From NCBI RefSeq assembly GCF_003018115.1, contig NZ_CP027457.1: a DNA stretch of 64,000 nt; one strand, written 5' to 3'. This DNA comes from Escherichia coli (GTDB lineage: Bacteria > Pseudomonadota > Gammaproteobacteria > Enterobacterales > Enterobacteriaceae). The notes beneath the pieces are model-generated. The model worked only from the letters and a program-made list of their open reading frames with translations, did not search any database and had not been told where the DNA came from. A program made the translations under genes and the position numbers. Positions 17,240-57,326 of this stretch are shown piece after piece (the stretch's first letter is position 1; every line of letters starts with the position of its first letter).

Positions 17240-17415
17240 GTCACCCGTAGGCCTGATAAGACGTGTAAGCGTCGCATCTGGCATCGCTTGTCGGATGCGG
17301 CGCGAGCGCCTTATCCGACCTACATCGGTGCTTCCCGTAGGCCTGATAAGACGCGTTAAGCGTCGCATCAGGCTTCAATTGCCGGAGAAAGCAATAATGT
17401 CTTATCCGGTCTACA
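17240..17415. repeat. cluster of REP (repetitive extragenic palindromic) units in the sucB-sucC intergenic region
   Basis: Repeated GCCTGATAAGACG...CGTCGCATC(A/T)GGC and GCCGGATGCGGCG...CCTTATCCG palindromic units. Confidence 0.7.
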
Positions 17416-21647: not shown

Positions 21648-21768
21648 ACGCCTGATGCGCTGCGCTTATCAGGCCTACGGGTAATGACTTGTAGGCCGGA
21701 TAAGGCATTCACGCCGCATCCGGCACTGGTTGCCTGATGCGACGCTTGCGCGTCTTATCAGGCCTACG
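21648..21768. repeat. REP units in the sdhB-sucA intergenic region
   Basis: Palindromic GCCTGATGCG/CGCATCCGGC-type units read directly. Confidence 0.65.
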
Positions 21769-39119: not shown

Positions 39120-39235
39120 CGATGCCTGATGCGACGCTTGACGCGTCTTATCAGGCCTACGTATTTCCTGCAATTTATTGAATTTGCACAAATTTGTAGG
39201 CTGGATAAGGCGTTCACGCCGCATCCGGCATCTGG
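39120..39235. repeat. REP units between dtpD and phr
   Basis: GCCTGATGCGACGCTTG...CGTCTTATCAGGCCTAC and GTAGGCTGGATAAGGCG...CGCATCCGGCA palindromes. Confidence 0.65.
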
Positions 39236-41625: not shown

Positions 41626-42762
41626 TTACGAAAGCCCGCTCCCCGCAAGGACTGACGCCAGATAGTTTCTGTCCATGGCTGCTTTTCGCATCTTACGTCT
41701 TAACCCTGCCTTGAATACCTTATCATTCGTCAAAATATTAATAGCAATGTGCCGTATCCCTGAAAATAATTCTGCTGCATTTCCTCTTCTTATCTTGCAG
41801 TCGTCTTCATTCATTACCACGTCCAGACGCCAGTGCAGCTTATTCTCCACGTGCCAGTGGTTTCGGATTGCTGTGGCGAACTTCTCTGCGGTTAAATCAG
41901 CAGAACTGATATAATATCTGACCGTCATTTCTGGTTCTTTCTTTTGTTCTGCTATTATGGACCGAAAGGAGACTGCCACGCATAATTTCTTCAGCCCTTT
42001 CCATTCAAACGTGAAATCAATAAGTTCATAAGGGACATCGCAAACAATATGAAGACGGATCTCTTCTCTGCCGTGACTCTTTTCACTGATTGCGTAACTG
42101 TCATGCTCTGGATTATTTAATTCTTTCAGCGGAAATTTTTCCTCAAAGGCTTTATTTAGCCGCCCCTGGTTTCCTTTTACCGCGAATAAATAATCACCTC
42201 CCTGTTTTTGTATCTTCTCTGCAATATCTTTCTGGCAACCCATCGCATCAGTTGTGATGATTTTTCCTTTAATATCCAGCATGTTAAGAAGTTCTGGGAT
42301 AGCTGTAATCTCATTAGATTTCTCATCCGTCTTGATCTGTCCGATGACCAGACTGTGCATTGTTGAGAACGCACTAATGACATGAATCGCTCCCCTGCGG
42401 CGACTCTTGTCATAAGAGTGCCGGAGCGTTTTTCCATCAATTGCAATGACGTCTTTATCATCTGAAGAATGGCAGTCACGCATCCAGTTAATAAAGCACT
42501 CGTGAAATTTTGCAGGACTGATACAGGATACAACTCTGGCAATGGTATCGTGAACAGGAATACCATTTTCAAAATCACCATATTGCTTCAAAAAATCGAG
42601 ATGTGTTTCCCCAAAATCCTCTATATCTTCCCAGCCTTCTGCACCAGAAATAACGGCACAAATAGTCAACAGTAGAATATCAGATAATTTATGTTCCACT
42701 TTCCAGGCTTGTCTGTAATCAGGGATAAGAGAAATATGTTCCATCAATTTTTTAAGCTCCAT
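41626..42762 (-). mobile_element. H-repeat (ISAs1-family) transposase-like ORF, 378 aa, of the kind found beside Rhs elements
   Basis: [64 protein letters not shown] is the H-repeat protein N-terminus as I recall it; sits between ybgA and the Rhs locus. Confidence 0.85.
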
Positions 42763-43870: not shown

Positions 43871-44440
43871 TTATTTTTCTTCACTACGAAGCAGTTCATG
43901 CTGTATTTTTGTTAAACATTCGTAAGACTCATCTTTGTTCGGGAGATGTGCTGTCATTCGAGCATAAGTTGGCTTCTCATCTTTAAAATATTTAACCATG
44001 ATTGAATTATCAAGGACTGCCAACAACTGAGCTGGATCACTGCTCTTTTTTTGATAGATACCCGCTCTTATATAACTTCTAAACCGATCGCCGAGAAACG
44101 CCGTTTTTTCTGCTGTATTTATCAACTCCTGCAACGTTCCTTTGATGGTATGATTTTCATTAAGGCGTAGTGACCCGACGCGAATTAAGAGTCTCGCCCC
44201 GCTTGGTGTGAATTTATTATTTTTACATGTGCCCAGTTCTGTTTGCCAATAATACTCACCGATGTCCTCATTCTGATACCATCTCCACATGGCTTTATTA
44301 TTTAAGACAGGAAACGCGGAAAAAATAGTACCCTTAGCGAAAATAGTAAAACAATCATGATCTTTAGCTTGTATTTCGCAATCAGCTATAACACCAAAAC
44401 TAACAAATATCATCAGCAAAAAGAACAAAACTCTTTTCAT
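43871..44440 (-). CDS. Rhs immunity candidate with a Sec signal peptide, 189 aa (YbfC-like)
   Basis: Starts inside the last codons of the Rhs gene (4-nt overlap). N-terminus [21 protein letters not shown] is a classical signal peptide with a V-I-A cleavage motif. Confidence 0.6.
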
Positions 44441-47400
44441 TTTCTTATTCCTCTCGATGTTCTCTGTTTCATTTTAGCTAAAATTTCACCCAAATCATCT
44501 ATCCCTGCTGTTGCTGGCCCATCGGGTTTATTAATGTCTGGGAATAAATAGGGTTCTGCACAAGTATATCCTGGTGGTAATTGAGTTGTTGGCCAATTTG
44601 TCTGTGGCAGGTAATCACTTGCTGTCTTTGTATCCATCCCTGGATACTGGGGATCATCCTGTGGCGTACAAGTCAGATTTGGTTTTACCCACTTCCTGCA
44701 ATACAGTGTGTAGTCGTAAGGGCTTAATACTCTGAAGAATGTTTTGAAAACATTAGGCGCACTACTGGCCTGGTCAATAGGATATGGCAGTCTTAATTGT
44801 TTCGCTATGTCTGGCAATTTACTTGGATCGGGCGTAGGCGGTTTGTTGGGTCTCGCTCCATATCCGCCATTATTTAAGTGTCCATATTTTGATGCCAGTC
44901 CCATTGAATCTATATACTGAACCGGATTCAACGGATACTGATAAAAATTCCATCCCCCCTTCAGTCCAATCGGATCCTGAGTGATATATCGCCCCTGCAG
45001 CGGGTCATAATAGCGGTGGCGGTTGTAATACAGGCCGGACTCCTCATCATACTGCTGCCCCGGCAGGCGGATAAGCTGCTGCAGCTGATGCGGGTTCTCT
45101 TCATTCAGCAGGTTGCCCCACTCATCGTATTCTGCGCACCATTCTGTTGCCCCTTCCGTGCTGATAAGCACCAGCGGCAGGCCGCGATGGTCGCAGTGGT
45201 ACAGGTGAATTTTTCGCGCCGGCGTGTACACCGGGTCCAGCTGGTTTTGCATCTGCTTCACCGTCAGGCCGCACGATGCCAGCCAGCGGCGGCTTTCCTC
45301 ACTCACCCGGTCAGCCAGGATTTCACTTTCCAGCCGGTCGAGCATCTGCACCAGCACCGGCGGGAACACCACACTGCCACCGTCTTCGCCGCCGGACTGC
45401 TGAAGCGCATCCGCCAGGCTGCGGCGCTGCGTTTTCGCCAGCTCACCGGTGGCGGTTTCAACCCTGATGAGTGGCGTGAAGCTCCCCGGCTGATAAATCG
45501 TCTGGATGCGGGTTCTGTCGTTCTGTATTGTGGTCAGCCGGTCGCCGTCCCAGCCGTACCAGGTCACTTGCGGTTTCCGTGACAGCGACATCCAGCCCGT
45601 CAGGTCCCGTTCACGTCGCCACACCCGTTTTGCCACCCTGCGGCCCAGCGGGTCGTAAAGATAGCGACTTTCGACCAGCGGCTCTGCATATTGTGTCCGC
45701 GTGTAGTGCACCAGCCGGTGCTGACTGTCGTAATGGTACCGGTGGGTGCGCTCATCATCCGTGCGGATAACCCCTTCCGGGATGAGGTCGGTTTTCTCTG
45801 TCAGTCTGCCGTGACGGTCATACCGGTAAAGATAGTGCGCGTCACGGGCGATACGGTTATCCGGCCACATGCTGAGGGTGCTGTCCGGGTGCAGCTCCGG
45901 GTCGGGCAGGCGGTTACCTGCCGGGTCTGTGGCATACGGGATGCGGATATCCAGAGTTGAGGTGGTGGTGTGAACGCCGGTCAGCCTGCCGGTGGTGCTG
46001 TAGCTGTAACTCCGGGTATGGCGCGGGCTGCTGATGCGGATGAGTTCGCCGTTGTCGTTCCAGGTGTAATCGCGGTCATACTGCAGGCTGTTCAGGTGCT
46101 GACGCTGTAACTGCCCGGCAGGGGTGTAAGCGGTGGTGAGTTCATAACGGCCGAAGCTGCGCAGCGTTTCCCGGTGCAGGCGGTCGCGGGTGAAATCCAC
46201 CAGCGGTGTGTCGCCGAGCTTCATGCCTGCCAGGTAACCGCTGCCGTAGGCCAGCCATTCCACGGCGGGCAGGCTGTCCGGTATACAGCGGTTCGCCAGT
46301 CCCTGCGCGTTGTACGCATGTCTGGTCTCATGCTGCCAGAGCAGTGCTTCCGTCTGCGGGTGATGCACCGTCTGACGCTCACCGGTCAGCCGGCCTTTCT
46401 CATCATACCCGTAATGCACCGTCACCCGGTGCCCTTCGCTGATATGGCTGATGTCTGTCAGCCAGCCGCGTTCGTCGTACCGCCACCGCTCTGCGGTTTC
46501 ACCCTTCACGGTGCGCTGCGTGAGGCGGTCTGCTTCGTCATAGTGCCAGTGGGTGACCAGCCCCTCATCCTCGCTGCGGATAAGTTTGCCGGTCAGGTCG
46601 TGGTGATAACGCTGTGTGCGGCCGTCAAAGCCGGTTTCCTGTATCAGCCGGTCGAGTACATCGTAACGGAAGGTGGTGTGGCTGCCGTTTTCACTGGTCA
46701 GGCGGATGACCCGTCCGGCAGCATTGTATTCCATACTGCGCGTCAGACCGCCCTGCGTGGTACGGATGGCCTTTCCCCACGCATCGTACTGTGTCCCGTT
46801 TCTGCTGCCGTCCGGGGCAATGACGGCGGTCAGGTCACCGGCGATGTTGTATTCATACCGCATTTCATGGCCCTGCATGTCTTTCACCGCAATTAACTGT
46901 CCACGGCTGTCGTATGCACGGTACTGGCTCAGCCCTTCCTCGCGGTGCACCGCCGTCATCTGCCCGAAGCGGTCATGGTCATAACGGGTTACATAACCGG
47001 AACAGTCGGTGAAGCTCAGCAACTGGCCGTAACGGCTCCATGTCATGGTTTTCCGGCTGCCGGTGGCATCGTCCGTTGCGCAGGGTAAGTCACTGTGTGG
47101 ATTATCATAACGGTAGCGGGTGATATCGCCGTTGTGTGCAGTTTCCTGAATCAGACGGCCCAATTCATCATATTCCCGGCGTATTTCCAGCCCGTCTGGC
47201 CCGGTGGCTGACGTTAACTGGCTGTGGTGGTTATAGTAAAACGCCGATGCCCTGCCATCCGGCGTGGTGATGCGCGTGATGAGTCCCGTCACCACATCCG
47301 GGCTGTACTCAGTCGTCCGGCCTGCGGCATCCGTCTGTGCCTTAAGCCTGCCCACCGCGTCAAACTGACTCTGCGTGACGCTGCCGTCCGCGTGTTCCTT

Positions 47401-48636
47401 TTTCACCACCCGCTTCAGCCCGGCTTCACCCTGCGTGTGCAGGACTTCACGGCGGTCCAGGCTGTCGGTGATGGTGATGCGGTCTTTCTCATACTGATAC
47501 GTGTAGCTTAAGCCTGCCGGGTTTAGCTGTTCTGTCACCCGCCCGTCGCGGTCGTAACGGTAACGGATTTCCGGTCGGCCCGTGTGACGGTGCGCCACCA
47601 TCCGGCCCCGGTATTTATCATCGTAAGTAAAGCTGCGCACCTGTGTATTGCTGCGGTCATACACCGCCGCCAGTTCGCCGCGCGGCGTCCAGCCATAGCG
47701 CACCAGCGGCGCGGCAGGTAAATTCTCCGGGTATTCCGGGTCGTGCGTCAGCCACACGGCAGACAGACGGATGCCGTTGTCCCGGCCATATTCGGTGTAA
47801 CCCGGCAGGGTATCAGGAAAAGCGGACGGTTCCGTCCCGCCGGAAATGGCCTGCTGCCGGGCTTCTTCTGCCCGCTGCGCCTGCGTGGTCAGTACCAGCC
47901 GGAAGTGACGCCCGGCACCATCCGTCACGCCGGTGATTTCGCCGCTGAATTCACCGGCGGCTTCGCGGTGGAACGTCTGTGTGCGCCCGAAGCGGTCCAC
48001 CAGCCCGGTCAGTACCCGGTACGGCGGCAGCGGCGCAGGCAGCACCTCATCCGCTTCCGGCACCCGCTCACACCAGCCGAGCAGCCACCACGGCCCCTGC
48101 GGGCTGTTTGTCGCCAGATAACGATGCGGACTTAAGCGGAGTTCTTCCGGCAGCGCCTGCCAGAGTGCGGCCAGCCGGTGACCTTCATCCAGTTTCGCCA
48201 CACCGCCGCGCACCAGCCACAGTGACTCGCTGCGGCTGTAACCGTCCTCACGGGGAAACAGGTGCTCAAAATACAGGCTTCTGCCGCCGTTATCACTGAG
48301 TATCAGTGTGTTATCGCGCAGCTGTAAGCGGATATCCGCAGGCATTTTCCAGCCGGGGCCGAGGCTCCCCACCGGCGCGGGCGTTTTTGTCCGGTAACTG
48401 CTGTAGGTGCGGGAGAGAATGAACGGCAGCGGGGCGGGCAGGGCGATGTCGGTTTCACCGGGAAGGACCTTTGCACCCAGCAGCGGATTGACCGGATGGC
48501 CGGACGTCACTCCGCCGGGGCACACCGAACAGGCCACGCCGGTGGGGGCACCAATGCGCACCCCGGCTGAACCCTGGACAATGCTACCGCCATACTGCGT
48601 CATGTCGCCCTGACGCGCCGCCGGTTTTCCGCTCAT
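44437..48636 (-). CDS. rhsC: Rhs-family polymorphic toxin, 1399 aa: conserved core with YD repeats, then a ~150-aa variable C-terminal toxin domain after [27 protein letters not shown]
   Basis: N-terminus [33 protein letters not shown] and YD-repeat core match E. coli Rhs proteins as remembered; locus position next to ybfA/kdp corresponds to rhsC. C-terminal domain family not recognised. Confidence 0.9.
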
Positions 48637-48878: not shown

Positions 48879-49085
48879 TCAGTAAAAATCACCAGTTGCC
48901 TTTTCGGCCTGATCCATCCACACCGGTTTATCGCTGGTTTTCGACCAGACGCGATGCAGGTAGCTGTAAAAGCGGGCGCGGTCTTTCCAGAAAAGCATGA
49001 AAGGCAGCGCCAGAACGCCCGCTGCAACCGCATAAGTACGGCGTAAAAAGATAAGCCATGCAGGATATTCTCTGTAGAGTTCCAT
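48879..49085 (-). CDS. ybfA: small membrane protein, 68 aa (DUF2517)
   Basis: [33 protein letters not shown]; synteny between the Rhs locus and kdp. Confidence 0.8.
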
Positions 49086-49294
49086 ACTTTTCTCCCCCTT
49101 TTGTATCTACCCGGTGAATAGCACCGGAAAAATGAATTTGTTTATCTGATGAAAATAGTACCGCCTTTTGTGTAATTTTACTACTCATCCGACCACTTAT
49201 TTTTGCTTATTGATGGTTTATTTACATTCACCCTGTAATTAAGTTACACAAAAGTTAAATTAATACTAAACATTAGTTAAATCATGGCTTTTGC

Positions 49295-49325
49295 CATTTT
49301 TATACTTTTTTTACACCCCGTCCGC
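49295..49325 (+). promoter_or_regulatory. KdpE-binding site / kdpFABC promoter element (TTTTTATACTTTTTTACACCCCGTCCG)
   Basis: T-rich direct-repeat sequence about 75-100 bp upstream of kdpF, matching my memory of the KdpE operator. Confidence 0.5.
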
Positions 49326-49397
49326 AGATTTTTGCGAAATCTTTGCAGCCAGAATTCTACCCTTCCGGTATCACTTTTAGGCCACTGGAGGTGCACT

Positions 49398-49487
49398 GTG
49401 AGTGCAGGCGTGATAACCGGCGTATTGCTGGTGTTTTTATTACTGGGTTATCTGGTTTATGCCCTGATCAATGCGGAGGCGTTCTGA
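49398..49487 (+). CDS. kdpF: K+-transporting ATPase small subunit KdpF, 29 aa, GTG start
   Basis: [29 protein letters not shown] lies inside the longer tracked ORF 49284-49487; its stop overlaps the kdpA start (TGATG). Confidence 0.8.
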
Positions 49488-51160
49488 TGGCTGCGCAAGG
49501 GTTCTTACTGATCGCCACGTTTTTACTGGTGTTAATGGTGCTGGCGCGTCCTTTAGGCAGCGGGCTGGCGCGGCTGATTAATGACATTCCTCTTCCAGGT
49601 ACAGCGGGCGTTGAACGTATACTCTTTCGTTTACCTGGCGTCTCTGACCATGAGATGAACTGGAAGCAGTATCTCTGTGCCATTCTCGGCCTGAACATGC
49701 TGGGGCTGGCGGTGCTGTTTTTTATGTTGCTCGGTCAGCACTATCTGCCGCTTAATCCACAGCAGTTGCCGGGGCTGTCGTGGGATCTGGCGCTGAATAC
49801 CGCCGTCAGCTTTGTCACGAATACCAACTGGCAATCTTATAGCGGTGAAACCACGTTGAGCTATTTCAGCCAGATGGCAGGCTTAACGGTACAAAACTTT
49901 CTTTCTGCCGCCAGCGGGATTGCGGTGATTTTTGCCCTCATTCGTGCATTTACCCGCCAGAGCATGAGCACACTCGGGAATGCCTGGGTCGATCTGCTAC
50001 GCATCACGTTATGGGTGCTCGTCCCTGTGGCGTTGGTGATCGCACTGTTTTTTATTCAACAAGGTGCGCTGCAAAACTTTCTGCCCTATCAGGCAGTGAA
50101 TACCGTTGAAGGAGCGCAACAGCTGTTACCAATGGGTCCGGTGGCTTCTCAGGAAGCGATCAAGATGCTCGGCACTAACGGCGGTGGTTTCTTTAATGCC
50201 AACTCGTCGCATCCGTTTGAAAACCCAACCGCACTGACCAACTTCGTGCAGATGCTGGCGATCTTCTTGATCCCAACAGCGCTGTGCTTTGCCTTTGGTG
50301 AAGTGACGGGCGATCGCCGCCAGGGGCGCATGTTGCTGTGGGCGATGTCGGTGATTTTTGTCATCTGCGTAGGCGTGGTGATGTGGGCAGAAGTTCAGGG
50401 TAATCCTCATCTGCTGGCGCTGGGTGCGGACAGCAGCATCAATATGGAAGGTAAAGAGAGCCGTTTCGGCGTGTTGGTCAGTAGCCTGTTTGCGGTCGTG
50501 ACTACGGCGGCGTCCTGTGGCGCGGTGATTGCGATGCATGATTCGTTTACCGCTCTCGGTGGCATGGTGCCGATGTGGCTGATGCAAATTGGTGAAGTGG
50601 TATTCGGCGGTGTCGGTTCTGGTCTTTACGGCATGATGCTGTTTGTCCTGCTGGCGGTGTTTATTGCCGGGCTGATGATTGGTCGTACACCGGAATATCT
50701 GGGTAAAAAAATCGACGTACGTGAGATGAAACTGACTGCACTGGCGATTCTGGTCACCCCGACGCTGGTGCTGATGGGCGCGGCGCTGGCAATGATGACC
50801 GACGCCGGACGTAGCGCCATGCTCAACCCTGGCCCGCATGGTTTTAGCGAAGTGCTGTACGCCGTGTCATCCGCCGCTAACAACAACGGCAGCGCCTTTG
50901 CCGGATTAAGCGCCAACTCTCCGTTCTGGAACTGTTTACTGGCGTTCTGCATGTTTGTCGGTCGCTTCGGGGTGATTATCCCGGTGATGGCAATTGCCGG
51001 TTCGCTGGTGAGTAAAAAGAGCCAACCCGCCAGCTCCGGCACGCTGCCAACGCACGGCCCGCTGTTTGTTGGCCTGTTAATCGGCACCGTGTTGCTGGTT
51101 GGCGCACTGACCTTTATCCCTGCCCTGGCGCTTGGTCCGGTGGCGGAATATCTCTCCTGA
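49487..51160 (+). CDS. kdpA: K+-transporting ATPase subunit A, 557 aa
   Basis: Start at [26 protein letters not shown] inside the tracked ORF; polytopic membrane protein. Confidence 0.95.
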
Positions 51161-51182: not shown

Positions 51183-53231
51183 ATGAGTCGTAAACAACTG
51201 GCGCTATTCGAACCAACACTTGTCGTTCAGGCGCTGAAAGAAGCGGTGAAAAAATTAAACCCGCAGGCGCAATGGCGCAATCCGGTGATGTTTATCGTCT
51301 GGATCGGCAGTCTGCTGACCACCTGTATTAGCATCGCGATGGCAAGCGGTGCGATGCCCGGCAATGCGCTGTTTAGCGCGGCCATTAGCGGTTGGCTGTG
51401 GATCACCGTACTGTTCGCTAATTTCGCCGAGGCGCTGGCAGAAGGCCGCAGTAAAGCGCAGGCCAACAGTCTGAAAGGGGTGAAAAAAACTGCCTTTGCC
51501 CGCAAGCTGCGTGAGCCGAAATATGGCGCTGCGGCGGACAAAGTTCCTGCCGATCAACTTCGTAAAGGCGATATCGTACTGGTAGAAGCTGGCGATATTA
51601 TCCCCTGCGATGGTGAAGTTATTGAAGGGGGTGCATCGGTCGATGAAAGCGCCATCACCGGGGAATCGGCACCGGTGATCCGTGAATCCGGCGGCGATTT
51701 TGCCTCCGTCACTGGCGGCACGCGTATTCTTTCTGACTGGCTGGTGATTGAGTGTAGCGTTAACCCCGGCGAGACATTTCTGGATCGGATGATCGCGATG
51801 GTGGAAGGCGCACAGCGACGTAAAACGCCGAACGAGATTGCCCTGACCATCCTGCTGATTGCCCTGACTATCGTCTTTTTACTGGCAACCGCCACGCTGT
51901 GGCCGTTTTCCGCGTGGGGCGGTAATGCAGTCAGTGTAACGGTACTGGTGGCGCTGCTGGTCTGTCTGATCCCAACCACTATTGGCGGCCTGTTGTCAGC
52001 GATCGGCGTCGCCGGGATGAGTCGGATGCTGGGCGCGAATGTGATTGCCACCAGCGGACGTGCAGTTGAAGCGGCAGGTGACGTTGACGTTCTGCTGCTG
52101 GATAAAACCGGCACCATCACACTCGGTAACCGTCAGGCATCGGAGTTTATCCCCGCGCAGGGCGTGGATGAAAAAACACTGGCTGACGCCGCACAACTGG
52201 CTTCGCTGGCTGATGAAACGCCGGAAGGCCGCAGTATTGTGATCCTCGCCAAGCAACGTTTTAACCTGCGCGAGCGCGATGTGCAGTCGCTCCATGCCAC
52301 CTTTGTACCGTTTACTGCGCAAAGCCGGATGAGCGGGATAAACATCGACAACCGCTTGATCCGTAAAGGTTCTGTCGATGCCATTCGCCGCCATGTTGAG
52401 GCTAACGGTGGTCACTTCCCTGCCGATGTTGATCAAAAAGTCGATCAGGTTGCGCGTCAGGGAGCCACGCCGCTGGTGGTGGTGGAAGGTTCTCGTGTGC
52501 TGGGTGTTATTGCGCTGAAAGATATCGTCAAAGGCGGTATTAAAGAGCGCTTCGCCCAGCTGCGTAAAATGGGCATTAAAACGGTGATGATTACCGGCGA
52601 TAACCGTCTGACTGCCGCCGCGATTGCTGCGGAAGCGGGTGTCGATGATTTTCTCGCCGAAGCGACACCGGAGGCCAAGCTGGCATTGATCCGTCAGTAT
52701 CAGGCGGAAGGCCGTTTGGTAGCGATGACCGGCGACGGCACCAACGATGCTCCGGCGCTGGCGCAGGCAGATGTCGCGGTGGCGATGAACTCTGGTACTC
52801 AGGCGGCGAAAGAAGCGGGCAATATGGTGGATCTCGACTCTAACCCGACCAAGTTGATCGAGGTGGTGCATATTGGCAAACAGATGCTGATGACCCGTGG
52901 CTCGCTGACCACCTTCAGCATTGCCAACGATGTGGCGAAATACTTCGCCATTATTCCGGCGGCATTCGCGGTAACGTATCCACAGTTAAATGCGCTGAAC
53001 ATCATGCGCCTGCATTCGCCCGACTCCGCCATTCTCAGTGCGGTCATTTTCAACGCCTTGATTATCGTCTTTTTGATTCCCCTGGCGTTAAAAGGCGTGA
53101 GTTATAAACCGCTTACCGCTTCTGCCATGTTGCGCCGTAACTTATGGATTTACGGTCTGGGTGGGCTGCTGGTGCCGTTTATTGGTATCAAAGTCATTGA
53201 TTTACTGCTGACCGTTTGCGGTCTGGTGTGA
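51183..53231 (+). CDS. kdpB: K+-transporting P-type ATPase subunit B, 682 aa
   Basis: P-type ATPase motifs DKTGTIT and [12 protein letters not shown]. Confidence 0.95.
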
Positions 53232-53239
53232 GGTTTACC

Positions 53240-53812
53240 ATGCGTGGATTACGTCCGGCATTATCGACATTTATCTTTCTGTTATTGATTACTGGCGGTG
53301 TTTACCCGCTGCTGACCACCGCGCTGGGGCAATGGTGGTTTCCCTGGCAGGCCAACGGTTCGTTGATCCGTGAAGGTGATACGGTGCGGGGTTCGGCATT
53401 AATCGGGCAGAATTTTACCGGCAACGGCTATTTTCATGGTCGCCCGTCGGCAACGGCAGAAATGCCTTATAATCCACAGGCTTCTGGCGGGAGCAATCTG
53501 GCAGTCAGTAACCCGGAGCTGGATAAACAGATAGCCGCACGCGTTGCTGCATTACGGGCCGCTAACCCGGATGCCAGCGCGAGCGTTCCGGTTGAACTGG
53601 TGACGGCATCGGCAAGCGGGCTGGACAATAACATCACCCCACAAGCGGCGGCCTGGCAGATCCCACGCGTAGCGAAAGCGCGTAATCTCAGCGTTGAACA
53701 GCTCACGCAACTGATCGCAAAATACAGCCAACAACCACTGGTGAAATATATCGGCCAGCCGGTCGTCAACATTGTCGAACTCAATCTGGCGCTGGATAAA
53801 CTTGATGAATAA
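53240..53812 (+). CDS. kdpC: K+-transporting ATPase subunit C, 190 aa
   Basis: Start placed at the second in-frame ATG ([20 protein letters not shown]). Confidence 0.9.
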
Positions 53813-56489
53813 CGAACCCTTACGTCCCGACCCCGATCGTCTGCTGGAACAAACTGCCGCGCCGCATCGGGGGAAGCTGAAAGTTTTCTTCGGTGCCTGC
53901 GCAGGCGTCGGGAAGACCTGGGCGATGCTGGCAGAAGCCCAGCGACTGCGGGCGCAAGGGCTGGATATTGTGGTTGGCGTGGTAGAAACCCACGGGCGGA
54001 AAGATACCGCCGCCATGCTGGAAGGGCTGGCTGTTCTGCCGCCAAAACGCCTGGCGTACCGTGGGCGGCACATCAGCGAGTTTGATCTCGATGCCGCCCT
54101 CGCCCGCCGTCCGGCGCTGATCTTAATGGACGAACTGGCGCACAGTAATGCGCCAGGTTCTCGTCATCCTAAACGCTGGCAGGATATCGAAGAACTGCTG
54201 GAAGCTGGCATTGATGTTTTCACAACCGTCAACGTTCAGCATCTGGAAAGTCTGAATGATGTGGTCAGCGGCGTCACCGGAATTCAGGTACGGGAAACCG
54301 TGCCCGATCCTTTTTTCGATGCCGCCGACGACGTGGTGCTGGTGGACTTGCCCCCGGACGATCTGCGCCAGCGGCTGAAAGAAGGCAAAGTCTATATTGC
54401 TGGGCAGGCGGAGCGCGCCATTGAACATTTTTTCCGCAAAGGCAATCTGATCGCCCTGCGCGAACTGGCACTGCGCCGTACTGCCGATCGCGTTGATGAG
54501 CAAATGCGCGCCTGGCGGGGGCATCCTGGCGAAGAGAAAGTCTGGCACACGCGCGACGCGATCCTTTTATGCATCGGCCATAACACCGGCAGCGAAAAAC
54601 TGGTCCGCGCGGCGGCGCGGCTGGCGTCACGGCTGGGGAGCGTCTGGCACGCGGTGTATGTTGAAACCCCTGCCCTGCATCGCTTACCGGAGAAAAAACG
54701 TCGGGCAATTCTCAGCGCCTTACGTCTGGCGCAGGAGCTGGGCGCGGAGACGGCAACACTTTCTGATCCAGCGGAAGAGAAAGCGGTAGTGCGTTATGCC
54801 CGTGAACATAATCTCGGCAAGATTATTCTCGGTCGCCCAGCCTCGCGCCGCTGGTGGCGTCGGGAAACGTTTGCTGACCGACTGGCGCGCATCGCCCCCG
54901 ATCTCGATCAGGTGCTGGTCGCGCTTGATGAACCACCCGCCCGCACGATTAACAACGCGCCGGATAGCCGCTCTTTTAAAGACAAGTGGCGGGTACAGAT
55001 TCAGGGATGCGTGGTTGCCGCCGCGTTATGCGCCGTTATCACCTTAATTGCCATGCAGTGGCTGATGGCGTTTGATGCCGCCAACCTGGTGATGCTGTAT
55101 CTACTTGGCGTGGTGGTGGTGGCGCTATTTTATGGACGCTGGCCTTCGGTGGTTGCTACCGTCATTAATGTGGTGAGTTTCGATCTCTTTTTTATCGCCC
55201 CACGCGGCACGCTCGCCGTCTCTGATGTGCAATATCTGCTGACCTTCGCGGTGATGTTAACCGTCGGGCTGGTGATCGGGAACCTTACTGCGGGTGTGCG
55301 TTATCAGGCGCGGGTAGCCCGTTACCGCGAGCAACGCACACGGCACTTATATGAAATGTCGAAAGCTCTGGCTGTGGGCCGCAGTCCGCAGGACATCGCC
55401 GCCACCAGCGAACAATTTATTGCCTCCACGTTTCATGCCCGCAGCCAGGTATTGTTACCCGATGACAACGGTAAATTGCAGCCGTTAACGCATCCGCAAG
55501 GAATGACGCCGTGGGACGATGCCATCGCGCAGTGGAGTTTTGATAAAGGCCTGCCTGCGGGTGCGGGCACCGACACGTTACCCGGCGTGCCATATCAGAT
55601 TTTGCCGTTAAAAAGCGGTGAGAAAACTTACGGGCTGGTGGTGGTGGAACCGGGGAATCTGCGCCAGTTGATGATCCCGGAACAGCAGCGCCTGCTGGAG
55701 ACGTTTACGCTGTTAGTCGCCAATGCGCTTGAGCGGCTGACGCTGACCGCCAGCGAAGAACAGGCGCGGATGGCAAGCGAACGTGAACAGATCCGCAACG
55801 CCCTGCTGGCAGCGCTTTCGCATGATTTACGCACTCCGCTCACGGTGTTGTTCGGTCAGGCAGAAATCTTAACGCTCGATCTGGCAAGCGAAGGATCGCC
55901 CCACGCCCGCCAGGCCAGCGAGATTCGTCAGCATGTGCTGAACACTACCCGACTGGTGAATAATCTACTGGATATGGCGCGAATTCAGTCCGGCGGCTTT
56001 AATTTGAAGAAAGAGTGGTTAACGCTGGAAGAAGTAGTCGGCAGCGCGCTGCAAATGCTGGAACCGGGTTTATCGTCGCCCATCAATCTTTCTCTGCCAG
56101 AACCGCTGACCTTAATCCACGTTGACGGGCCACTCTTTGAACGGGTGCTGATTAATCTGCTGGAGAACGCGGTGAAATATGCGGGTGCGCAGGCCGAAAT
56201 TGGTATCGATGCCCACGTTGAGGGCGAAAATCTACAACTGGATGTCTGGGATAACGGCCCCGGTCTTCCGCCAGGCCAGGAGCAGACGATATTTGATAAG
56301 TTTGCTCGCGGGAATAAAGAGTCGGCAGTACCGGGGGTAGGGCTTGGACTGGCAATTTGTCGGGCGATTGTGGATGTACACGGCGGCACCATTACCGCGT
56401 TCAACCGACCGGAAGGTGGTGCCTGTTTTCGTGTTACACTTCCCCAGCAAACCGCTCCTGAACTTGAAGAATTTCATGAGGATATGTGA
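53805..56489 (+). CDS. kdpD: sensor histidine kinase KdpD, 894 aa
   Basis: Start at [16 protein letters not shown]; N-terminal P-loop GACAGVGKT, membrane segments, C-terminal HisKA ([10 protein letters not shown]) and ATPase domains; overlaps kdpC by 8 nt. Confidence 0.9.
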
Positions 56490-57163
56490 CAAACGTTCTG
56501 ATTGTTGAAGATGAACAAGCTATTCGTCGCTTTCTGCGCACGGCGCTGGAGGGCGACGGGATGCGCGTCTATGAGGCCGAAACGCTGCAACGCGGCTTGC
56601 TGGAAGCGGCTACCCGTAAGCCAGATTTGATTATTCTCGATCTCGGCCTGCCCGATGGTGATGGGATTGAGTTTATCCGCGACCTGCGCCAGTGGAGCGC
56701 GGTGCCGGTGATTGTGCTTTCCGCACGCAGCGAAGAGAGCGACAAAATCGCCGCGCTGGATGCCGGAGCTGATGATTACCTGAGTAAGCCGTTTGGCATT
56801 GGCGAATTGCAGGCCCGTCTGCGCGTCGCCTTACGCCGCCATTCAGCCACCGCCGCACCCGATCCGCTGGTGAAATTTTCCGATGTGACCGTCGATTTAG
56901 CCGCCCGCGTGATTCACCGGGGTGAGGAAGAGGTGCATCTTACGCCAATTGAATTTCGCCTGCTGGCGGTGCTGCTCAACAATGCCGGAAAAGTGCTCAC
57001 CCAGCGCCAACTCCTTAACCAGGTATGGGGGCCAAACGCGGTCGAACACAGTCACTATTTGCGTATTTATATGGGACATCTGCGACAAAAACTGGAACAG
57101 GATCCCGCCCGCCCCCGCCATTTCATTACTGAAACCGGTATTGGTTATCGGTTTATGCTTTAG
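56486..57163 (+). CDS. kdpE: OmpR-family response regulator KdpE, 225 aa
   Basis: Receiver domain with DLIILDLGLPDGDG and a winged-helix C-terminus; 4-nt overlap with kdpD. Confidence 0.95.
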   Translation: MTNVLIVEDEQAIRRFLRTALEGDGMRVYEAETLQRGLLEAATRKPDLIILDLGLPDGDGIEFIRDLRQWSAVPVIVLSARSEESDKIAALDAGADDYLSKPFGIGELQARLRVALRRHSATAAPDPLVKFSDVTVDLAARVIHRGEEEVHLTPIEFRLLAVLLNNAGKVLTQRQLLNQVWGPNAVEHSHYLRIYMGHLRQKLEQDPARPRHFITETGIGYRFML

Positions 57164-57171
57164 GCGGTTAA

Positions 57172-57312
57172 ATGCTGGATCCGGCGTGAACGCCTTATCC
57201 GGCCTACAAAATAGCTTAAATTCAATAAATTGCACCATCCTCGCAGGCCTGATAAGCATAGCGCATCAGGCAGTCATAAGTAAAAAAGGGCGATCTTGCG
57301 ACCGCCCTTTTT
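57172..57312. repeat. REP units (57172-57272) followed by a bidirectional terminator hairpin AAAAAGGGCGATCTTGCGACCGCCCTTTTT (57283-57312) between kdpE and pgm
   Basis: Palindromic GGCGTGAACGCCTTATCCGGCCTAC / GCAGGCCTGATAAGCATAGCGCATCAGGC units and a GC hairpin flanked by A- and T-runs. Confidence 0.6.
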
Positions 57313-57326
57313 CTTATTTAATGTGT

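Follow-up and report, generated by a model that had tools for sequence, protein, structure and literature searches.

Regulatory region and first genes of the Escherichia coli kdpFABCDE operon: a KdpE operator, the 29-codon kdpF and its one-base overlap with kdpA

The window analysed here is a stretch of 64,000 nucleotides of Escherichia coli DNA (contig NZ_CP027457.1, assembly GCF_003018115.1). The locus that we describe within it is almost certainly the regulatory region and 5′ coding part of the kdpFABCDE operon, of which kdpFABC encode a potassium pump: a KdpE operator, a probable promoter, a very short kdpF gene, and kdpA, the start codon of which shares a base with the kdpF stop codon. 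The features, with those of the downstream genes, are as follows:

49284..49397, plus strand: 5′ extension of a spurious 67-aa open reading frame; non-coding, covering the operator and promoter
49296-49316, plus strand: published minimal 21-bp KdpE element, identical to K-12
49297..49316, plus strand: KdpE operator core, TTTATA-CTTTT-TTTACA, read directly from the sequence
49299-49304, plus strand: KdpE half-site S1, TTTATA, the first direct repeat
49310-49315, plus strand: KdpE half-site S2, TTTACA, preceded by the 5-bp spacer CTTTT
49343..49486, plus strand: spurious 5′ extension of the kdpA frame (605-aa open reading frame, TTG at 49343)
49358..49363, plus strand: probable -10 hexamer TACCCT, proposed from its conservation
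49387..49391, plus strand: Shine-Dalgarno sequence GGAGG for kdpF, 6 nt before the GTG
49398..49487, plus strand: kdpF coding sequence, GTG start (49398-49400), 29 codons and TGA (49485-49487)
49475..49479, plus strand: Shine-Dalgarno sequence GGAGG for kdpA, inside kdpF codons 26-28 (GCG GAG GCG), 7 nt before the ATG
49485..49489, plus strand: TGATG junction, in which the kdpF TGA (49485-49487) and the kdpA ATG (49487-49489) share base 49487
49487..51160, plus strand: kdpA coding sequence, 557 aa, the channel-like K+-binding subunit
51183..57163, plus strand: rest of the kdp operon (kdpB, kdpC, kdpD, kdpE)
51183-53231, plus strand: kdpB open reading frame
53240-53812, plus strand: kdpC open reading frame
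53805-56489, plus strand: kdpD open reading frame, the cognate sensor kinase
56486-57163, plus strand: kdpE open reading frame, the regulator that binds the operator

This layout agrees with existing annotation. A 401-nt query (49200-49600) was matched in 5,423 of 5,426 complete E. coli genomes, and both kdpF and kdpA were annotated under the match in all 30 RefSeq/PGAP records that we sampled down the ranking of those 5,423. In the RefSeq record NZ_CP033605.1 (O157:H7), kdpF (L001, 3199-3288) corresponds to window positions 49398-49487 and kdpA (L001, 3288-4961) to 49487-51160; coordinates near the operon map one-to-one on the window, with the same genes, kdpB to kdpE included, in the same order. 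Away from kdp the mapping breaks: the rhs gene is offset by 2 bp, and the speF-potE pair of that record is missing from the window, which therefore comes from a different strain.

The strain background also differs from K-12, the interval 49200-49600 being 100% identical to an O157:H7 record. The front end of kdpFABC is nevertheless nearly the same in K-12: 230 of 231 bases agree over 49270-49500, the KdpF peptide is identical, and in MG1655 kdpF (b4513, 728732-728821) and kdpA (b0698, 727059-728732) likewise overlap by 1 nt at stop and start, with the divergent ybfA and an rhs element upstream, as in the window. The sole difference is at 49321 (T here, C in K-12); it lies 5 bp 3′ of S2, beyond the 21-bp minimal element and within the 30-bp oligonucleotide of the binding studies.

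The kdpF product is a single-helix membrane peptide of 29 residues. All 29 are identical to those of the KdpF chain in 14 PDB entries, including 6HRA (6hra_D); solved KdpFABC structures contain this 29-aa sequence as chain D, and the peptide would be a physical subunit of the complex. Three family models match above their curated cut-offs: PF09604 (28.9 bits, cut-off 21.2, covering residues 6-29), NF011332 (76.7 bits, cut-off 56, residues 1-29 on model positions 1-29) and TIGR02115 (34 bits, cut-off 26.85). In its size (within the range of about 25-30 aa), its single helix and its place directly upstream of kdpA, the gene has the features of the KdpF family (PF09604, NF011332/TIGR02115), and between its peptide and the chains of PDB 5MRW and 6HRA we find no difference. 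A passage of PMC12648545, citing Gassel 1999, Huang 2017 and Stock 2018, describes KdpF as a stabilising subunit of KdpFABC that lies in the membrane with KdpA. KdpA itself scores 799.6 bits against PF03814 and 1003.3 bits against TIGR00680 (cut-off 387.7), an equivalog model that it matches over its full length from the proposed ATG (residues 1-557 on model positions 1-561 of 563).

A sequence-only reading of this DNA had proposed a GTG-initiated KdpF of 29 residues that runs through a TGATG overlap into kdpA. Both proposals are borne out: the RefSeq and K-12 annotations are identical to the proposed gene, alignment with the annotated KdpF peptide reveals no mismatch (29/29), and the TGATG lies at 49485-49489, just as in RefSeq and K-12. 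The same reading had filed all of this under known biology, rightly so, bearing in mind that it is already annotated in RefSeq and K-12 and structurally solved (6HRA). The kdpF/kdpA front end is, then, a case of a confirmed observation and a supported interpretation, and our results leave known Kdp biology unchanged. Their value is rather as a quality check: a 29-codon GTG gene, a one-base overlap and an operator can be recovered from raw sequence with base-level accuracy.

The published operator, mapped by footprinting and EMSA, contains two 6-bp direct repeats, TTTATA (S1) and TTTACA (S2), which Narayanan et al. reported to be 5 bp apart (PMC3264566). The minimal KdpE-binding fragment is 21 bp long, extending 3 bp beyond S1 on the 5′ side and 1 bp beyond S2 on the 3′ side, and agrees with a DNase I footprint from -72 to -50; the K-12 site is given as CATTTTTATACTTTTTTTACACCCCGCCCG, and it is for the K-12 sequence that KdpE binding and activation dependent on K+ limitation have been described (PMC3264566). 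In the window, the sequence around the half-sites is the published kdpFABC binding-site sequence, CATTTTTATACTTTTTTTACACCCCG, with both half-sites and the 5-bp spacer in place, in accordance with the KdpE site that the sequence-only reading had claimed at this spot. The 21-bp minimal element is identical to the K-12 sequence for which activation is published. The 20-mer at 49297-49316, TTTTTATACTTTTTTTACAC, is present once in the window, where the number expected, with up to two mismatches allowed, is 0.00. The cognate KdpD/KdpE two-component system is encoded in the window too; its KdpE (56486-57163) matches the KdpE chains of PDB 4KNY and 4KFC with E values of about 1e-145 (4KNY: 2e-145).

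For comparison across the Enterobacterales we used the exact 20-mer operator, taking one genome per species, which gave at least 120 loci; the set having been gathered by exact match to the operator, the variability of the operator is not measurable from it. Among the matches listed, kdpF-like and kdpA-like frames lie downstream of the 20-mer, within about 500 nt, in 102 loci, of which 101 were fully scored. The genera among these matches include Citrobacter, Klebsiella, Enterobacter, Serratia, Yersinia, Rahnella and Erwinia, and further Proteus, Providencia, Photorhabdus, Xenorhabdus, Hafnia, Budvicia and Pragia. Counted from the first base of the 20-mer, the kdpF start is 97-103 nt away in 94 of the 101 loci among the matches listed (101 nt in the window). 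The exact 20-mer also precedes kdpF-kdpA in four Bacillota loci. In these loci there is also what appears to be a second pair of repeats, together with a further small hydrophobic open reading frame that is conserved and belongs to no family; their Kdp proteins share only 39-59% identity with the E. coli ones.

Among the 101 scored matches, kdpF is 29 aa long in 98 and 27 aa in three, and it starts at the same aligned codon in each, GTG in 87 and ATG in 14. Pairwise diversity at codon positions 1, 2 and 3 is 0.287, 0.124 and 0.439, respectively (93 distinct 90-nt genes among the matches listed), a pattern that is the signature of a translated frame. At least 80% of 96 distinct sequences among the matches listed retain the GGAGGTG block of 49387-49393. 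Ribosomes load at GGAGG (49387-49391) and initiate at GTG 49398 to yield the 29-aa KdpF, as both the sequence and its conservation show. There is one other in-frame GTG in the E. coli gene, at codon 5 (49410), initiation at which would yield a 25-aa peptide; that the Pfam model spans only residues 6-29 would fit such a start. Codon 5, however, is not kept as a start codon among the matches listed (GTG in 25, GTA in 17, CTG in 14, GTT in 7 and CTT in 6 of 93), whereas at codon 1 all 93 of these genes have GTG or ATG, with the conserved GGAGG 6 nt upstream, and NF011332 aligns to KdpF from its first residue to its last (1-29 on 1-29). We consider the codon-5 start very improbable, and retain the GTG at 49398.

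The same alignments point to a promoter between the operator and kdpF. T49358, A49359 and T49363, which are positions 1, 2 and 6 of a hexamer TAnnnT, recur in at least 80-95% of 96 distinct sequences from Enterobacterales among the matches listed, and we read TACCCT at 49358-49363 as the probable -10 element. A scan of 49080-49500 for the sigma-70 consensus returned no promoter, and no hexamer resembling TTGACA is found 16-18 bp from TACCCT, i.e., there is no canonical -35; these two results fit an activator-dependent promoter. A candidate -35, TTGCGA at 49332-49337, was rejected: at 20 bp from TACCCT it is too far away. Transcription would start at about 49367-49370, an estimate derived from the position of TACCCT together with the published -72 to -50 footprint; with +1 placed there, the operator falls at about -72 to -50, an agreement with that footprint which is partly circular.

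Searches for other elements gave little. Rfam, at its gathering thresholds, has no RNA family in or near 49086-49500, and there is thus no leader riboswitch or small RNA there; ARAGORN found no tRNA in the window. Two terminator-like hairpins were taken as chance matches: one at 49284-49297, adjoining the operator and not conserved across genera, and one at 49416-49432, within kdpF.

Under K+ limitation, KdpE is phosphorylated by the kinase KdpD, both proteins being encoded in the 3′ part of the operon itself (53805-57163). A KdpE dimer would then occupy the half-sites (49299-49315), the midpoint of which lies about 60 bp before the transcription start, and once bound would switch on a weak sigma-70 promoter that has the TAnnnT -10 element (49358-49363) and no recognisable -35, so that the kdp mRNA would begin near 49367-49370. 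This arrangement differs from that of the pho box: pho boxes overlap and replace the -35, whereas the KdpE site, at about -72 to -50, lies upstream of the -35 region. [quoted passage not shown]

Six-frame translation presents both genes in over-extended form, as the sequence-only reading had noted: kdpF is the tail of a 67-aa open reading frame (ATG 49284..49487) and kdpA is contained in one of 605 aa that opens at TTG 49343. Both frames are present and neither is conserved. If the longer of the two kdpF forms were the real product, KdpF would be its C-terminal part. This is what the six-frame scan reports, and the exact 67-aa sequence is indeed public, as a 62-member cluster drawn from GenBank, ENA and Logan gene calls and variously named ('K+-transporting ATPase, F subunit' or 'ATPase'). 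Against such a product, ATG 49284 is upstream both of the KdpE operator and of the probable transcription start, and would for the latter reason be absent from the kdp mRNA. In 48 of 99 distinct relatives among the matches listed, moreover, the kdpF frame is stopped between the operator and the kdpF start, and the extension shows no conservation except in the operator and promoter blocks. The curated models of KdpF, with lengths of 24-29 positions, match the 29-aa form end to end, and it is a 29-aa chain that the solved structures hold. The 67-aa product is effectively refuted, with a vanishingly small chance of being real.

The case for a kdpA start upstream of 49487, be it TTG 49343 (605 aa) or some other in-frame codon within kdpF, is that the frame is open from 49343 in the window. 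Among the matches listed, however, a stop closes that frame at most 30 codons before the ATG in 71 of 99 distinct relatives (directly abutting it in 16), and the start is ATG in 101 of 101 loci, at the aligned position and after a nearly invariant GGAGG. The KdpA HMMs begin at this ATG, TIGR00680 aligning from residue 1 of the 557-aa form, and the RefSeq and K-12 annotations agree on ATG 49487. We attach next to no probability to an upstream start, and take kdpA to begin at 49487.

The sequence-only reading had further supposed that an automated caller would miss this arrangement, which holds in part. PGAP is correct in 30 of the 30 records sampled, NCBIfam equivalog models exist for kdpF, and in the protein collection the exact 29-aa KdpF comes from no fewer than 1,000 contigs. 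What stands of the claim is the cluster of 67-aa calls: its existence shows that callers without homology guidance mis-call kdpF instead of missing it, the typical error being over-extension and not omission. The annotation hazard is a real one, as the 67-aa call persists publicly, while homology-guided pipelines get the gene right.

A further observation concerns the junction between kdpF and kdpA. Among the 101 scored matches, stop and start overlap by 1 nt in 77, abut (TAAATG) in 16, and are separated by 1 nt in five and by 2 nt in three; with the overlap replaced by a gap of 0-2 nt in 24 of these 101, TGATG itself is not the conserved feature. That feature appears to be the tight juxtaposition of the two genes together with the embedded Shine-Dalgarno sequence. 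Codon 26 of kdpF is GCG in 90 and codon 27 GAG in all 93 of the distinct genes among the matches listed; set against a mean third-position diversity of 0.44, this near-invariance indicates that the kdpA Shine-Dalgarno is held at synonymous sites. The last codons of kdpF are accordingly under a double constraint, from the peptide (its conserved ...NAE.F tail) and from the ribosome-binding site of kdpA.

The geometry is that of a coupled pair, in that stop and start overlap and the downstream Shine-Dalgarno lies within the upstream gene, both features being conserved. An embedded kdpA site and a one-base overlap suggest that kdpA translation is tightly coupled to that of kdpF, which could come about by re-initiation, by unmasking of the embedded site, or by both. 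From this geometry we would go one step further only tentatively: it is possible, if somewhat doubtful, that one main role of kdpF translation is to bring or unmask ribosomes for kdpA. If that were so, the output of KdpA would be tied to that of KdpF.

It may be instead that the overlap has no mechanistic role: kdpA would initiate independently at its own strong Shine-Dalgarno, and TGATG would merely be compact packing. The embedded GGAGG, with its 7-nt spacing, is a strong site by itself and the most conserved element, and the operon is retained in those relatives among the matches listed in which a gap of 0-2 nt takes the place of the overlap. The other kdp junctions, too, differ in geometry (a 22-nt gap at kdpA/B, an 8-nt gap at kdpB/C, an 8-nt overlap at kdpC/D and a 4-nt overlap at kdpD/E). 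On the other hand, the kdpF-kdpA junction stays within 2 nt in 101 of 101 relatives among the matches listed, across many genera and despite divergence in the remainder of the sequence, which argues for selection on the juxtaposition; and a ribosome that terminates on kdpF necessarily sits over the kdpA start region. Independent initiation strikes us as rather unlikely to be the full account, yet it is a live alternative or complement to coupling, and the two models are not exclusive.

For the presumed coupling of kdpA to kdpF, familiar pairs with an overlapping stop and start (TGATG or ATGA), such as trpE/trpD and trpB/trpA, offer a comparison. In these, as at kdpF-kdpA, the stop and start codons have bases in common, and the Shine-Dalgarno sequence of the second gene is placed within the coding sequence of the first. 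The difference is one of scale: with only 29 codons, the whole of kdpF fits into the roughly 90 nt before the kdpA start.

Four Bacillota loci, among the matches listed in a scan of one genome per species, carry the exact 20-mer of the E. coli KdpE operator upstream of kdpF-kdpA:

L021, 5171-5190, exact 20-mer operator, Neobacillus fumarioli
L022, 214-233, exact 20-mer operator, Paenibacillus
L027, 10749-10768, exact 20-mer operator, Paenibacillus
L090, 1632-1651, exact 20-mer operator, Bacillota

The Kdp proteins of L027 share merely 39-59% identity with those of the window (55% for KdpE), and the KdpE recognition helix, SHYLRIY(M/I)GHLR(Q/K)KLE, is retained there. Conservation of the KdpE site across phyla was reported earlier at the level of the motif (Fig. 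S3 of PMC3264566); the 20/20 identity of the operator in Bacillota is a sharper form of that published conservation.

Three of these loci (L021, L027 and L090) share two further features. The first is a second repeat pair, TTTACC-N5-TTTAC(A/C/G), which lies approximately 12-15 bp 3' of the first operator and before kdpF. The second is an additional conserved hydrophobic ORF of 28-29 aa, immediately 5' of kdpF (for example, MVNDFTMVVLFVAAFAIFWGFLKFCERA); this small ORF of the Bacillota kdp loci matched no Pfam or NCBIfam family. It may be the counterpart of kdpZ, a gene of the kdpZYABCXDE operon in Clostridium acetobutylicum.

Closer to home, the window's kdp promoter has two blocks, 3' of the operator and 5' of the probable -10 element, that are kept in at least 80-95% of the 96 aligned Enterobacterales sequences. 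One consists of a T-run at 49329-49333 plus C49335; the other is ATCTTT at 49339-49344. Neither block fits a -35 hexamer at normal spacing; the two might reflect contacts with RNA polymerase or KdpE, or a role in DNA shape. K-12 differs from the window at 49321, 5 bp 3' of KdpE half-site S2, having C where the window has T; this position is outside the 21-bp minimal KdpE element but is included in the 30-bp oligonucleotide with which binding was studied. On the other side of the operator, and directly abutting it, a hairpin, ATGGC-TTTT-GCCAT followed by a T-run (49284-49297), was flagged as terminator-like. Since this hairpin shows no conservation across genera, it is probably a product of chance.

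Further into the operon, the window contains two more gene overlaps:

53805-53812, kdpC/kdpD: the kdpD ATG (53805) is placed 8 nt within kdpC, which ends with TAA at 53810-53812
56486-56489, kdpD/kdpE: the kdpE GTG (56486) overlaps the kdpD TGA (56487-56489), giving GTGA

The ORF list gives both kdpC and kdpD in over-extended form, beginning at TTG codons at 53216 and 53772, respectively. The over-extended, 67-aa call for kdpF (49284-49487) recurs in public protein sets, where it forms a 62-member cluster that includes O157:H7, O55:H7, UTI89 and E. marmotae records as well as Logan/ENA automated calls.

Directly after kdpE, across the stretch 57164-57326, lies pgm, on the opposite strand. This arrangement differs from that of the best-matching O157:H7 record, NZ_CP033605.1, in which speFL-speF-potE stand between kdpE and pgm; the window is without them. 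Of 5,426 complete E. coli genomes, only 343 cover this kdpE-pgm junction to 80% or more, the best full-length match among those listed being an O145 strain (98.2%). The spacer includes a repeat with a median of 15 occurrences per genome.

Elsewhere in the window, the following features were recorded, the Rfam matches all being above the gathering score:

21694-21764 (+) and 17250-17320 (-), two copies of naRNA4 (RF02564; Rfam, 82.3 and 64.9 bits)
39153-39195 (-), ES036 (RF02751; Rfam, 75.1 bits)
41626-42762 (-), transposase ORF of 378 aa with DDE_Tnp_1_assoc and DDE_Tnp_1 domains
44437-48636 (-), RHS core protein of 1,399 aa, adjoining the transposase ORF
48879-49085, ybfA (DUF2517), divergent from kdpF and near the transposase ORF

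The transposase ORF looks intact in the window. In the annotation of NZ_CP033605.1, an ISAs1-family transposase in this neighbourhood is a pseudogene interrupted by an internal stop.
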